DNA of 64,000 nucleotides from Carcharhinus longimanus. Its lineage: Eukaryota. The notes beneath the pieces are model-generated. The model saw nothing but the letters and a program-made list of their open reading frames with translations, searched no databases and was not told the DNA's origin. Shown here in pieces: positions 10,700-16,889 of this stretch (position 1 is its first letter; each line of letters starts with the position of its first letter). A program made the translations under genes and the position numbers. The stretch is from assembly GCA_030264375.1 (NCBI GenBank), contig JASCQW010000072.1:55642728-55706727 (forward strand), written 5' to 3'.

Positions 10700-10900
10700 A
10701 AATCATTCGGTAAAGGAAGAAGATGCTTCAAGTGAAAAGAGGTGGCACAGGTTAAGATGATCATAAAAAGATTTAGGAGGATAAATAAAAATTCACACAA
10801 AGGGTGATTTAAATTGTGGAATTCTCTGCTACAAGCTATTGTAAGAAAATCGACTCAAATAAAAGGGATGGTGAAGGATGTTGGGGGAAAAAAAAGTGAG
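10700..10900 (+). mobile_element. CR1-like LINE 3' fragment
   Basis: CACAGGTTAAGATGAT...TTTAGGAGG...AGGGTGATT...TGGAATTCTCTGC (RVV..WNSLP). Confidence 0.55.
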
Positions 10901-10919
10901 CTGAAGTCTGAAATTAGCT

Positions 10920-11125
10920 CGTCAGACAAAATTCTGTTGGTAGCACTCCCAGAGTCAGAAGGTTGAAGGTTCAAATCCCATTGAGGGAGTACCACACTGT
11001 CAGGTGTCATGTCTCAAATAAGACATCAAATTGAGCTCCTGCCTACTCTCAGGTAGACATTATTTTCAGGTGTTTAAAGATAATTAGATTTATCCATTGC
11101 ATCATGGTCTATATTATTTCCTTAA
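10920..11125 (+). mobile_element. DeuSINE 5' fragment
   Basis: GGTAGCACTC..AGAGTCAGAAGGTTGAAGGTTCAAATCCCA..TGAGGGAGT. Confidence 0.65.
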
Positions 11126-11287
11126 GCGACACAGACACAGACACTGACACCTCTAAGACTTTTTGGTTTGCAGCAATGCAGTCTTCTGGTGGGTTTTCAA
11201 ACTACAAGCAGTTCTCAGCTTTGTTGAGAGGAGTTTCAAAGAGAGGGCAACATTAAGATTGTTGCCCCTACAGTCCCTGTGGCAATC

Positions 11288-11512
11288 TGTTTCTCCAAAA
11301 AGAAGCTGTGGTAGAAGAATCCATCCAGATTGATCTTTTGTTTTCAAGGCAGTTTGTTGTAAGAAACTTCCTCAGTTCTACTAACCTATAAGAGACTCTT
11401 TCCTCAAAGCATTCCAGCTATCTCTGTTTATAGGACAATCAATGTCACATGTTCAATTAGCAATTTCCCTAACAAGATAGTTTCCCCCCCATTGATTAAT
11501 AACACACTGACA
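11288..11512 (-). repeat. Copia 3' LTR
   Basis: TG...CA termini; homologous to 15987-16179 (64/81 identical at 11305-11385; 32/33 at 11421-11453); TATAAA on the minus strand at 11427-11432. Confidence 0.9.
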
Positions 11513-11515
11513 GAT

Positions 11516-11530
11516 TCCCCTCTTTCTTCT
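11516..11530 (-). promoter_or_regulatory. Polypurine tract (PPT)
   Basis: Minus strand AGAAGAAAGAGGGGA lies 3 nt upstream of the LTR TG. Confidence 0.85.
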
Positions 11531-11739
11531 AAATTAAAGATTTGAAAGAAAAATTAAAAATTAAAGAACATTCTTTTGGATCTAAACAGAAATAAAGGAT
11601 CTCACATTTCCACATCAATAAATCCTGTTATGCATTTATCAAATATAAATAAGCCATTATAAAAACAGAAATTAGTTTTTCATTTCATCAATATAACACA
11701 AAGCTGCCCCTCTTCTAATGCATTTAGTAATTTCCTAGA

Positions 11740-12170
11740 GCAGTTCGATAACTTGTAACTAGTATCAACTCATTGTAATTTGGAGATTTCCCTTCTCTCC
11801 AACATTTGGTTTATGCCGGCTCGGCCCTTTCTGCACTTTCTCCATTTGTTATCCCACAGTAATCCATTGTCTATATTATAATCTTTGGATAAACTTTTCC
11901 CACATTCCCCCTTATATAAAATTTCTGACGATATATTGGACAAGTAAACCCCCATATCCAGTGCTTTTACCAATGTCGATGTTTCGTAGCTAATGTGCTT
12001 TTTACAATTGGCTTCCCAAGCCAATAGGCAACATTTCTCTTTTTTTCCCCCCCCACAAACAGTATGATAAACAACCCTGCTGTGCTACAGCATCCATCTG
12101 GGAAATTGGCATGTGAAATATTACAACCAACCAACCTCATATCTTCTGGTTCACCCAAGGTTCAGAACAA
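11740..12170 (-). pseudogene. Copia RNase H remnant
   Basis: MRLVGCNISHANFPDG (SDASHANL-type), AWEA...ETSTLVKALDMGVYLS...IDN.LLWDN...QMLERREI. Confidence 0.85.
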
Positions 12171-12199
12171 ACCTCTCTGAATGCAACTTTTAAATGTTT

Positions 12200-13340
12200 T
12201 ACTTGCTCTCAGAATTTCCTCAAATGAAACATGCTTCATCATAGTACTTAAGTTCTAACACACCACAGCTAGTATCACGTCTAATCTTGAGTGCACAACC
12301 AGTTCAATGATATTATCAAACTTTTCAGTTGTTCTGTTTCTTCCTTGGTAGAAGAAACAAGGGAGGTTCATGAAGAACTAACCTGAGTTATAGGAATATT
12401 ATTAATATTGTCTAAATAAGATTGCTGATTCAGTGTCTCGCCTAACTTGGTTTGATCAATGTCCAGACCCCCCTATGTATTTAAAGACCCCAGACTTGCG
12501 GCTTTGAATTCCTTATCATCTTGAATACCCCTTGTTCAAATTCAACAGAGCCTCCCCACAGGAAATCATCATCATCATGCATAATGATAATACCATAGTT
12601 TCTCCTTATGGTATCAGTAAAACATTGCAAGGTCTATCTTTAACTGGATGTGACATATTTTCACTAGGACAAACTTCATGGAAAAATATCACTCTCTTGG
12701 CACATCACTCAACTTCCATAGCTTTCCTTCTACATCACTAGCTTCTTTGGACAGTTCAAAAAAGTAGTCCCTGAAACTTCTCACCTTGTGAAAATGCAGC
12801 CTGTATGCCAAACATTTTACACTCCCAGGAATATGGTGCAAAAATAACCAAGAAAACCCTCAAACTTACTCTTCCTGCAGTAGGCGAGTCCATCCTGATA
12901 TTCTGATCCCTTAATTTCTCTTCAAAGCCTCAGGCTACTAATCTTGCTATGGCCTTATATGTGCTACATAAGAACATAAGAAATAGGAGCAGGAGTAGGC
13001 CATCTGGCCCTTCGAGCCTGCCCCGCCATTCAATAAGATCANNNNNNNNNNNNNNNNNNNNNNNNNNNNNNNNNNNNNNNNNNNNNNNNNNNNNNNNNNN
13101 NNNNNNNNNNNNNNNNNNNNNNNNNNNNNNNNNNNNNNNNNTTCTTCCTCAACTCCGTTCTAAACCGCCCCCCCTTTATCTTGAGGCTGTGCCCCCTAGT
13201 CCTACTGTCCTTTCTGAGAAGTACCTCTTCTGAATAGATCCTCTGGGGAGATAAAGCTAGTTGTCCCCTGCAGGTACTTCAATAAATATTCCAAATTCCT
13301 GCCAACTTTTTAACTCTGTTTAGGACTCCTTTAATGAGCT
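12200..13340 (-). pseudogene. Copia (RVT_2-type) reverse transcriptase remnant
   Basis: ELKSWQEFGIFIEVP (about 13270-13320); YKAIARLVA*GFEE...MDSPTAG (12880-12959); IQAAFSQG; GKLWKL; MHDDDDFLWGG at 12550-12582 (HVDD-type active site). Confidence 0.9.
12966..13204 (-). mobile_element. CR1-like LINE 3' end nested in the copia RT (spans N-gap)
   Basis: ACATAAGAACATAAGAAATAGGAGCAGGAGTAGGCCAT tail; the copia frame resumes on both sides. Confidence 0.85.
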
Positions 13341-13599
13341 TGTTTTCCAGTTTATTAGCAGTGACCAAATTCTCTCAGTCATGAAGACTTCTCCTTCTAT
13401 TGAGAGTTCCAGCTTGCTTTCTAGTCCTCATTCTTGTTAACTACAGCTCTTACATACATTCTTTTCCCTTTCTGCACTACTACTATGTGATCTGTCTCCC
13501 ATACAAGCACAATTTTGTCCACAAGTCCGTGACCTTTTTCTAGGATCATGGCCATTTTCTGGTTCAGCGTTGGAACTGATACCATGCTTTTTTTTTTAA

Positions 13600-14410
13600 A
13601 CATTGTTTTGCCAATGCAGATATCTTGTCTCTCGTCCTTCCTCCTGCACATTGAGACAGCTTTTGTATTTACCAAAGGCTTTTCCTGTTCTCCCTATTAT
13701 GGTGGCATCCCTGCACATACTGGTATCTTCTGACATGTGTGTTAGCATTATCCTTATTTTACGTAGATGTCTTTTTGAACAAATATCATCCTGTGCCTCA
13801 ATATTACTTTGTTCATAGTCTGTCAAACTGGTGTTTCCCATCATCTGCTCCTCATAACTGTCAGTCCATTTTATGAAGTGCACAGTGCCTCCTCACTTGC
13901 TGAGTACTGTTCAGAACCTGTGAAATGTATAGCCAGTACCAATCAACCGTGAAGAACTTACCCAAACAAACAATCTGATTAGTGTGTTGTACTATTACTA
14001 CTTACAATTACTCCCCATTACGTTGTCAGGCCGTTTCCACTCTTTTTGCCCAAGTCTTTTACAATATACCATATCTCCTTCTCGAAATTCTATTCCTGAT
14101 GGCCTTATGCAGTGTCATATGGCTGACCAAATTTGTTCCGAAGCCTCAGCTTTGATTAAAGCTTTTCTGGTTGCATGCAAGGCATTCAAATGAGCAGGAA
14201 AAGTAGAGCTAATGCTGCTCCCTTCTAGAGCCAGGAGAGCTTCTGATAGCACAGAAAGCACCCTTGGATTTCTATGAAGTGTAGGATATAAATATTCATA
14301 TCCCAAACTTTCAAGTCCATTGAAACTGTGTTCTTAAACTCCCTGGCTGGTGGCAAGTTCACAACAGGACATAGAGGTGTCTTGTGATATTTAATACAGA
14401 TTTCGCATTG
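13600..14410 (-). pseudogene. Copia integrase remnant (zinc-finger end, first D, C-terminal part; core deleted) plus linker
   Basis: QCEICIKYHKTP..PVVNLPPAREFKNTVSMDLKVWD (14300-14410); RNPRVLSVLSEALLALEGSSISSTFPAHLNALHATRKALIKAEASE; DATIIGRTGKAFGKYKSCLNVQEEG. Confidence 0.85.
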
Positions 14411-14454
14411 AATTCAATAAGGTCACCATACTGATTAATAGAGTGATCCGTGTG

Positions 14455-14645
14455 ATCTTACAAGGGAGGACCACCCCTTTGGAGGATATTTACATGCTGT
14501 CATGCCCAAACTTGAAGCAGGCGTTGCTTTCATACCCCCTGATCTTCTGTCAGTCTGTTTCATTGAGTGACACCAAATAGTAATTAAGCCAGTCTCACAC
14601 TTCCAAAGGACAACCACTGTCCAAAACTGCAGAGTTGAAGGAAGT
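14455..14645 (-). pseudogene. Copia aspartic protease remnant
   Basis: FNSAVLDSGC with LDSGC at 14610-14624, followed by ...FKFG...VVLPCKI. Confidence 0.85.
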
Positions 14646-14774
14646 AACCATCAATATTCTCATCAATGGATTCAAACTGTCAGTCATCAATACAAATTCC
14701 ATTATGGCAGCACCGTCATTTTCATTCTCAGATAAATCCATCCCATAGGTTACTTCAAAAACATTAGCTTCACT

Positions 14775-15950
14775 GTGAGCAGTTCAGTACAATGATACTG
14801 GGAATCACATTGATTAAGCACGCCCCATGCATATTTGGGGTTCAAATGCTTATCACTACCATCCCAAGCATGCTTTTGTCCCAACTTTCAAACTGGCTAC
14901 GGTCATGACCAGTTGCCTCACACCACTGGGGATCCAAGTTCAATCTGGGTCTCAGGTGACTATGTGGAGTTTGCACATTTCCCCCCGTGTTTGCATGGGT
15001 TTCTCTAAGCACTCACTTCCTCCCACAGTCCAAAGATGTGCATGTTAGGTGGATTGGCCGTGTTAAATTGCCCCTTAGAGTCAAAGGATAAGAGGTAAAT
15101 GTGTAGGGTTATAGGTATAGGGCAGGAGGTTGGGTCTGGACTCTTTCAGAGAATCAGTGTAGGCTTAATGGGGCAAATGGTCTCTTCCTGCACTTAGGAT
15201 TTAGGTCTCCTGTCATTAATCCCCTCTTGGTATTGGAATTTGTCTAATCTTTGATCAACCCTGAAATTGGGTCACGATTGAATCCTCTATCTGTTGCTTC
15301 ATGGTACTTTTGCTTGTATTTGCTAAGAAAGTGTCTGGGAACAACAGTTTTCCCAGAAATTTTTTAAGGGCTGCAGCTATTTGATTGAGGAGAGGATCTT
15401 TCCCCTGGAATGATTCCCCCATTCGTACCAAAACATTATCAACATGGAAAATGCAGCACAGTCCAATAAAACACCAATACGGATTCCAGAATTTCAAGTT
15501 CAAATTTCTGACATCTCTTGCAACATTTATCAAAATCCAAGAAATATTCTTCCTTGGACTGATCCTCTGATTTCCTAAACTTAAAGATTGCCCAGGTTTC
15601 ATGTACTTTCAGTTACTTGTTCTTTTTGGAACTCGTTCTTTTGATCCAAAAATTATAACAATGTACAAATCTCGCTTCTTGAACGAGATCATCCACTTTT
15701 CACTCTGAAAATACTTTATTCCCTTTCTTAGTTTTGGATGGTAACAATAATATTAATTCCATACCCTGCTTTTTTCAGGGTATGGAACTAATCCAGATCC
15801 ACATTTTCTACTGCTGATATGGTCCAGAGTCAGAAAAAAATTGTGGATAGTCAAAACGCGCAATTTTGTACAAATGCCCTTCCGTCACTTCATAAATTGT
15901 CAGCAACAGTACACTTGATTTCCTCAGACAGAGGCAAAAAGGTTCATATA
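14775..15950 (-). pseudogene. Copia gag remnant, interrupted by a V-SINE
   Basis: KDPLLNQIAAALKKFLGK; degenerate zinc knuckle LNPKYAWGVLNQCDSQYH near 14790-14845; lies between PBS and protease. Confidence 0.7.
14900..15200 (+). mobile_element. HE1-like V-SINE nested in copia gag
   Basis: TGTGGAGTTTGCACATT...TCCCACAGTCCAAAGATGTGCATGTTAGGTGGATTGGCC. Confidence 0.9.
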
Positions 15951-15971
15951 CAGGAGGCAATCACCAAACTT

Positions 15972-15985
15972 ATCCTCTCCTACCA
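15972..15985 (-). promoter_or_regulatory. Primer-binding site complementary to initiator tRNA-Met
   Basis: Minus strand TGGTAGGAGAGGAT vs expected TGGTAGCAGAGGAT (13/14), 1 nt after the 5' LTR. Confidence 0.88.
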
Positions 15986-15986
15986 C

Positions 15987-16179
15987 TGTCATCCCCAACA
16001 AGTGGCTGTGGCAGAGGAATCAATCCAAACTGGTCATTTACGTTCAAGCCAGTTTATTGTCAGACGCTGCCTCAGTGCTACTAACAAGAAGCTCTCCTCA
16101 CCAATGTTACAGCCATCTCTATTTATAGGACAATCAATGTCACATGTTTAACTAGCAATTCCCACACACTGAATTGACA
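15987..16179 (-). repeat. Copia 5' LTR
   Basis: Homology to 11288-11512; TATAAA on the minus strand at 16122-16127; followed by the PBS; right end +/-5 nt. Confidence 0.88.
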
Positions 16180-16889
16180 GTGTGTTTTTATTAGNNNNNN
16201 NNNGTTTGGATCCAGTATATTTTACACTCAAGAGCTGGGCCCTTCTTTCTGGTTTCCAACCGGGACTTAACCATTGCTTCCAAGACCTCTGTGGACTTTG
16301 TGCCTCCATAAAATGACTTTTGATTGTCACAAATTCAACTTGGTAACTGTAGGCCAGTGTCCTTTAATACAAAATTCTTTTCAAATAGTTCAGTACATGT
16401 ATATACAGCAATGACATTACAAATTAATATTCTACATAGCACATCTCTAAGAATGTAGACAGGTAATGTCAAAGACCAGGACAAGACTGGGGCTCAGTTG
16501 TCATGCCCACCATGATCGAATGGTCCACTGGCACTTACTGTCCAGGTTCTCTCAGGATGGGACAGCTTGAATTACAACAGGGAATCTAGCACCAGTGCAA
16601 CAGTCTCCCAGTAACAGCCTGTGCCATCAGGTTAAAATTGAAAAATAGAACAGTAAAGGCGGCAACTTAGCTGAAGCTTGTGTCACTTAGTATGTTGCTT
16701 CAGCCACATCTAATGTTTGAAAGACAACTGTTAATTCACCAGTGGTAAATCCAACAACTAATGCTGTTTTAGATTATTAGGCTTGGATTTTCATGGAGTC
16801 ATGGAGACTACTCAGACATTTAAAAATGGCAGGCTGTATTCGGATTCAGAAGCTCCATCCCCATTTCCGACAGATCTCATTCTCTCACA

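Follow-up and report, generated by a model that had tools for sequence, protein, structure and literature searches.

A decayed Ty1/copia retrotransposon, likely of the GalEa clade, and its sister copies in a shark genome

What kind of mobile element lies between positions 11288 and 16179 of the 64,000-nucleotide stretch of Carcharhinus longimanus DNA analysed here (the window), and how much of it is left? A sequence-only reading had proposed an end-to-end fossil of a GalEa-like Ty1/copia element. We are highly confident that the segment is a shark-genome copy, broken and no longer functional, of a GalEa-type Ty1/copia long terminal repeat (LTR) retrotransposon. GalEa is already known in sharks, and the present element at best adds one more member to that clade.

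On the minus strand, the element reads LTR, gag, protease, integrase, reverse transcriptase (RT), ribonuclease H (RNase H) and LTR, with integrase preceding RT. The intact polyprotein P0157 (1472 aa) aligned collinearly to the window by tblastn in nine pieces that run from 15846 in gag to 11701 in RNase H and show 28–55% identity. A HMMER search with one RT/RNase H frame returned 128 proteins at E values up to 0.001, a few of which match the nested repeat alone; all nine relatives from this search that were scanned carried RVT_2, and the seven with an integrase match had integrase before RT. Domain order and the RVT_2 relatives rule out a gypsy or BEL identity and, together with the LTR pair, bear out the proposed Ty1/copia identity. 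The motifs named earlier (the gag knuckle, LDSGC, CxxC/MDLKVWD, ARLVA*GFEE and HDDDDFLWGG) were all found in the window in copia order; both short LTRs and the polypurine tract were located as well (Table 1), and stops and frameshifts throughout the element agree with the decay that had been described. The wording 'end-to-end' is right in that the element spans LTR to LTR; the copy is nevertheless incomplete, with two internal deletions that include the integrase core. With the inserts taken out and the deleted DNA restored, the original element measures close to 5 kb. A word-based protein search with the decayed RT/RNase H frame found no match among 1280 candidates, and a zf-NPL4 match of Pfam in the window frames was dismissed as chance.

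The GalEa assignment, which is likely correct, is supported by a tblastn contrast, an RT/RNase H tree and the motifs of single copies. In tblastn onto the element, all 128 long GalEa-motif reference proteins matched (median 270 bits), and no match came from the 97 branch-2 copia proteins, which are of the WVDD type and were found with an unrelated small contig as the starting point. The tree was built from 69 rows and 470 columns under LG+G4, with the Shimodaira–Hasegawa-like approximate likelihood ratio test (SH-aLRT) as its only support measure; P0169, P0015, P0062 and P0340 were dropped because their anchor motif was not found. The window copy and ten paralogs formed a star-like clade (SH-aLRT 100), and all 19 host copies one clade (97) with three families inside. 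The host copies nested among 43 GalEa-motif proteins, apart from seven branch-2 proteins, and formed a group supported at 100 together with P0157 and several further proteins, among them P0148 from the anomuran crab Petrolisthes manimaculis.

Several points weigh against this assignment. The proteins of the GalEa-motif set had been picked out because they resemble the element or the relative closest to it; the 128-versus-0 contrast is thus partly built in. The tree references were classed by published motifs, none being labelled GalEa (neither GalEa1 nor Zeco1 is among them), and the outgroup is a single branch-2 lineage, with other copia clades absent. Copies were projected onto P0157 columns, which may draw them closer to P0157 as well as to one another. 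Pfam, run on nine window frames, gave only a weak RVT_2 match (E=0.25). What stands of the proposed phylogenetic grouping is the nesting among GalEa-motif proteins, as read against motif-classed references and one outgroup lineage.

In single copies, the motifs agree with those published. Four DNA searches of the 2.68-Gb genome, in which the best 40 of 279, 172, 265 and 111 candidates were scored, revealed a family of 40 or more copies, all decayed to the same degree, with long matches at 66–77% identity and one at 83%. The GalEa motif table that we used gives D(T/S)(G/A)C for protease, KARLVA, D(V/I)KAA(Y/F) and (Y/H)VDD for RT, and TRPDI, SDAS and ADCLTK for RNase H. The window shows LDSGC, ARLVA, a degenerate GIQAAF, HDDDD and NISH. 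Among 31 paralogous loci, LDSGC/LDTGC was present at five, DIKAAF at four, H(V/I)DDF at seven, TRPDV/SRPDL at two and SDASH at six, and exact ADCLTK at none. For integrase, DNGxEF (6/31) and (C/L)E(R/K)NH (5/31) were found and the HH pattern used matched at 0/31; the window copy keeps CxxC and the first Asp only (CEIC..MDLKVWD, 14407–14300). A full gag zinc knuckle of the type left as a remnant in the window is kept at two paralogous loci (L047 and L076). The RT catalytic motif of the window (12579–12562) reads HDDDDF over a run of GAT triplets where paralogs have H(V/I)DDF; this points to slippage once the copy was dead.

The primer-binding site (PBS) of the window copy, TGGTAGGAGAGG, starts one base after the 5' LTR. 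The earlier claim of a Met-type PBS holds for the match to host tRNA-Met (13/14 letters) and less well for the published sequence TGGTAGCAGAGC, from which the window copy differs at 2 of 12 letters. The family string is TGGTAGCAGAGGAT, exact in L042 and L044; in both, the first 11 letters of TGGTAGCAGAGC are also exact and position 12 is G, as in the host tRNA-Met. At least 11 of the 14 letters of TGGTAGCAGAGGAT followed 15 of 22 paralogous 5' LTRs, and none of 18 3' LTRs scored above nine. TGGTAGCAGAGGAT complements the 3' end of a host tRNA-Met(CAT), for which a pattern search gave 25 hits against one in a reversed control, with an ARAGORN tRNA call in one of seven pattern-search loci (L084). 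We take this tRNA-Met to be the initiator. The family primer site tracks it for 14–16 letters, and the longer match would be explained by primer copying during plus-strand synthesis.

In six published metazoan GalEa elements, position 12 is C (PMC5445492, Additional file 5). The G of the present family would suit a branch-1 copia lineage that is related to GalEa and falls outside the clade in its authors' definition; so would an RT/RNase H tree without a labelled reference. Single copies nevertheless keep DSGC, RLVA, DIKAAF, HVDD, TRPDV/SRPDL and SDAS as tabulated for GalEa1, Zeco1 and Olco1, the short TGT..CA LTRs, 5-bp duplication and ~5 kb length fit GalEa, and GalEa is the sole copia clade in both shark genomes classified so far (PMC11889832). 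We consider a position outside GalEa highly improbable.

Whether the copy goes back to a single insertion was judged from its ends. The two window LTRs are identical at 154 of 191 aligned sites [~81%; Kimura two-parameter (K2P) distance 0.227]. Measured alongside paralogous LTRs, the pair was 78% identical against 72–82% to those of other copies and hence no closer, so LTR identity alone is no proof of a single insertion; nor was a target-site duplication found at 16179/11288 (0/5 letters). Both results tell against one intact insertion event. The 5' boundary is ambiguous and adjoins a 9-N gap at 16195–16203: a start at 16179 requires two deletions in the head of the 5' LTR, and a reading from ~16204 (inside the 9-N gap) is nearly gap-free. 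The latter outscored 16179 in seven of eight anchorable paralogous LTRs (6/14 without anchor), in a comparison where it bore no cost for its first ten letters. In the family, LTRs are mostly 205–229 bp long, and flank duplication was 5/5 in the full-length copy L077, 4/5 in L042 and L073, 3/5 in L031 and 2/5 in L074; at 12 solo LTRs with both ends aligned, it was 4/5 in six, 3/5 in three and 0–2 in three.

An LTR pair no more alike than other LTRs of the family, the missing duplication and a 100-N gap inside the element could all arise if two halves of different insertions had come together, through ectopic recombination or because scaffolding bridged that gap. However, the gap lies within one nested repeat whose ends abut adjacent RT positions (1–13 bp apart in 16 of 18 paralogous loci), a 5' boundary within the 9-N gap would hide the duplication, and equal LTR divergence is expected after a single burst of near-identical copies. 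We therefore regard such a join as highly unlikely and retain one decayed insertion.

Table 1. Features of the element and its nested repeats (window positions)
Feature	Positions	Strand	Remarks
3' LTR	11288..11512	-	225 bp, TGT..ACA (TG..CA)
Polypurine tract	11515..11530	-	16 purines, two bases before 3' LTR
RT and RNase H, decayed	11701..12961	-	several frameshifts/stops; ARLVA*GFEE 12947-12918, HDDDDFLWGG 12579-12550
Nested repeat insertion 2	12962..13220	.	100-N gap at 13042-13141; site empty in 16/18 paralogous loci
Integrase C-terminal part, linker, RT start	13221..14273	-	stops and frameshifts; tblastn
Integrase remnant	14274..14430	-	CxxC half of zinc finger; MDLKVWD with first catalytic Asp; followed by deletion 2 (~365 bp)
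Protease region	14431..14699	-	LDSGC 14624-14610; ends at deletion 1, ~290 bp missing
gag CCHC zinc-knuckle remnant	14780..14826	-	CDSQYH at 14809, frameshifted
Nested repeat insertion 1	14914..15207	.	~295 bp; site empty in 11/13 paralogous loci
gag, N-terminal part	15208..15864	-	decayed, frameshifted; tblastn, homology detected to ~15351
Primer-binding site	15972..15985	-	13/14 letters complementary to 3' end of host tRNA-Met(CAT)
5' LTR	15987..16179	-	193 bp from TGTCAAT at 16179; alternative start ~16204

Compared with the paralogs, the deletion at 14430 amounts to 250–308 bp in seven of 11 distinct copies measured and to more in the others, and takes the end of the protease together with the HH part of the integrase zinc finger. 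At 14273 the missing stretch, 314–375 bp long when measured against 11 of 16 distinct copies, comprised the integrase catalytic core. L050 and L080 overlap one copy and were counted once wherever distinct copies are given. We take nested insertion 1 to resemble the tail of a short or long interspersed element (SINE/LINE) and insertion 2 the 3' tail of a CR1. The tail of insertion 2 is 97–100% identical to repeats at other loci and this insertion is therefore much younger than the element. In the 3' flank, a 40-bp patch (11161–11201) attracted many partial contig matches in all four sequencing runs examined, and thus is another old repeat fragment. The window as a whole (1–64000) has no long host open reading frame; it contains five 100-N gaps and nine stop-to-stop frames of at least 130 aa, some of which presumably resemble LINE fragments.

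The sister copies are consistent with one old burst. None of 40 fetched loci had a stop-free frame of more than 263 codons. An 882-aa open frame at one RT hit, considered as a young or domesticated copy, was rejected, the fetched locus having no stop-free frame above 179 codons. LTR–LTR distances in the 11 paralogs with both LTRs were K2P 0.18–0.37 (median 0.25, some ends being misaligned). All 20 further LTR hits looked solo within the 1-kb stretches fetched, which indicates that many sister copies have been reduced to solo LTRs. Differences by codon position were nearly even among 11 copies (0.30/0.26/0.33 over 55 pairs), in contrast to 0.36/0.29/0.56 between families, where third positions dominate against both other groups (0.56 and 0.60). 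This is as predicted by neutral decay after a burst, with selection only on active lineages. The two other groups are further GalEa-like families of the host genome (L063–L071, e.g. G000:C109:18822500-18832499); one is less decayed, and its within-group distance of ~0.20 versus 0.30 indicates more than one wave of activity. One fragment, L022 (G000:C72:56796382-56796876), is 83% identical to window positions 13734–14252 over 520 bp, where 67–79% is usual; it lies on the same contig 1.1 Mb away and may have arisen by local duplication or conversion long ago.

Globin exons support the proposed shark host. Its alpha- and beta-globin exons best matched PDB entries 1gcv and 3mkb, which we take to be shark haemoglobins; alpha-globin scored 128 and 122 bits with these, versus 60 with 1cg5 (presumably from a ray) and at most 56 with single-chain tetrapod entries. 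The stretch 10800–12950 is present in sequencing runs of nine coded organisms from 12 studies, with no RNA run among those listed. Contigs bridged the LTR–flank junction at 11288 in three of the four runs examined, with 12/867 (organism B), 13/515 (D) and 17/270 (I) differing letters; no listed contig of run X7 (organism C) did so. The insertion therefore predates the splits among B, D and I, as judged from the 3' part of the element and its flank. The LTR–LTR distance of the window copy is 3–4 times the deepest of these splits. Combining K=0.227 with the whale shark–zebra shark synonymous divergence (dS 0.061–0.111 over ~50 My; PMC13100897), we infer that the insertion, or burst, would date to ~100–190 My ago; this figure uses 191 sites and a rate borrowed from another lineage and site class, and is inflated by CpG loss (observed/expected 0.23–0.35).

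An insertion common to at least three other organisms might have been kept because the host co-opted the LTR or a coding remnant. Its frames, though, are broken throughout, divergence from organism I is about equal inside the element (30/429 and 23/352) and in the flank (10/153), and slowly evolving genomes are expected to retain insertions (PMC13100897). Co-option is in our estimate far-fetched, and a neutrally decaying copy is the reading that we keep.

The history we propose follows the standard copia cycle; of its steps, family copies show the match of the PBS to tRNA-Met and a target duplication of 5 bp. In the active family, RNA would have been transcribed from the 5' LTR and a Gag-Pol polyprotein made; reverse transcription would have been primed by host Met-tRNA at the PBS, with the plus strand started from the polypurine tract, and integration would have produced a 5-bp target duplication. 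The window copy was probably inserted in an ancient burst and has since decayed largely neutrally, losing two integrase segments, gaining two younger repeats and accumulating stops and frameshifts. A wider scenario, tentative and on balance doubtful, is a shark-specific GalEa sub-lineage of at least three extinct families, missed by LTR-pair finders through age, with a primer site re-templated to 14–16 letters of vertebrate Met-tRNA, a Mesozoic burst, and fixed orthologous insertions whose presence or absence could mark branches of shark phylogeny.

A different copia, of branch 2, was represented by open-frame fragments at L051 (G000:C49681), L052 (G000:C20289) and L057 (G000:C53401). L051 is WVDD-type, and L052 shares 53–67% identity with a set of proteins, fish and coral entries among them. 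Such fragments were found on contigs shorter than 1.5 kb only, the large scaffolds having no close copy, and are probably contamination; if genuine, they would mean that a shark carries two copia clades.

The mechanism offers nothing new; of mild interest are how old the element is, the presence of three families in the host, the extended match to the tRNA and an insertion shared with other organisms. The GalEa record in sharks is pushed back in time, and old fixed insertions provide neutral clocks and phylogenetic markers. More than 100 decayed RT hits in one genome (124 matches of 150 scored, partly of other families) imply that low copia counts in surveys can reflect age rather than absence.

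GalEa was reported in 2025 in two sharks, with seven clusters in Scyliorhinus canicula and three in Carcharodon carcharias, among 719 and 210 copia copies, respectively (PMC11889832, Additional file 3). The suggestion of a possibly poorly described lineage thus fails at the level of the clade. According to Additional files 1 and 3, eight chondrichthyan genomes were screened, of which three had no copia and three had one or two unclassified copies. The survey used LTRharvest with at least 80% LTR similarity and warns that ancient copies escape the method; in the present family, this value is barely reached, on gap-free columns, by three of 11 paralogs and the window copy. Compared by description only, the S. 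canicula and C. carcharias clusters belong to the same clade and host group, and our family is older than most copies visible to such a survey and may be absent from catalogues. The literature searched, which did not extend to subscription papers such as the 2008 GalEa description, contained none that dealt specifically with old GalEa families of sharks. Copia is listed in the whale shark (PMC8455134); PMC4350176 and PMC10587355 provided background only.

Among proteins, P0157 was the best overall match (559 summed bits), and the P0157/P0148 group shares a longer spacer between GFEE and DSPT; over RT/RNase H, this group differs in being only 43–57% identical. The sister position of P0157 (81) is possibly inflated, P0157 being the alignment template. 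Metazoan GalEa members comprise GalEa1, CoRex1–3, Zeco1, Olco1 and Cico1 (PMC3587641; PMC5445492, Additional file 5). The present element differs from them in being dead and deleted, in its shark host and in a PBS that continues as TGGTAGCAGAGGAT, with 14–16 letters of host tRNA-Met, where the published sites read TGGTAGCAGAGC. It resembles them in its short TGT..CA LTRs (~225 bp, compared with 133–217 bp in CoRex), a Met-tRNA PBS right after the 5' LTR, a length of ~5 kb, the 5-bp target duplication of family copies and integrase before RT, as well as in the protease motif DSGC of GalEa1, in RLVA, DIKAAF and HVDD as in Olco1, and in SDAS.

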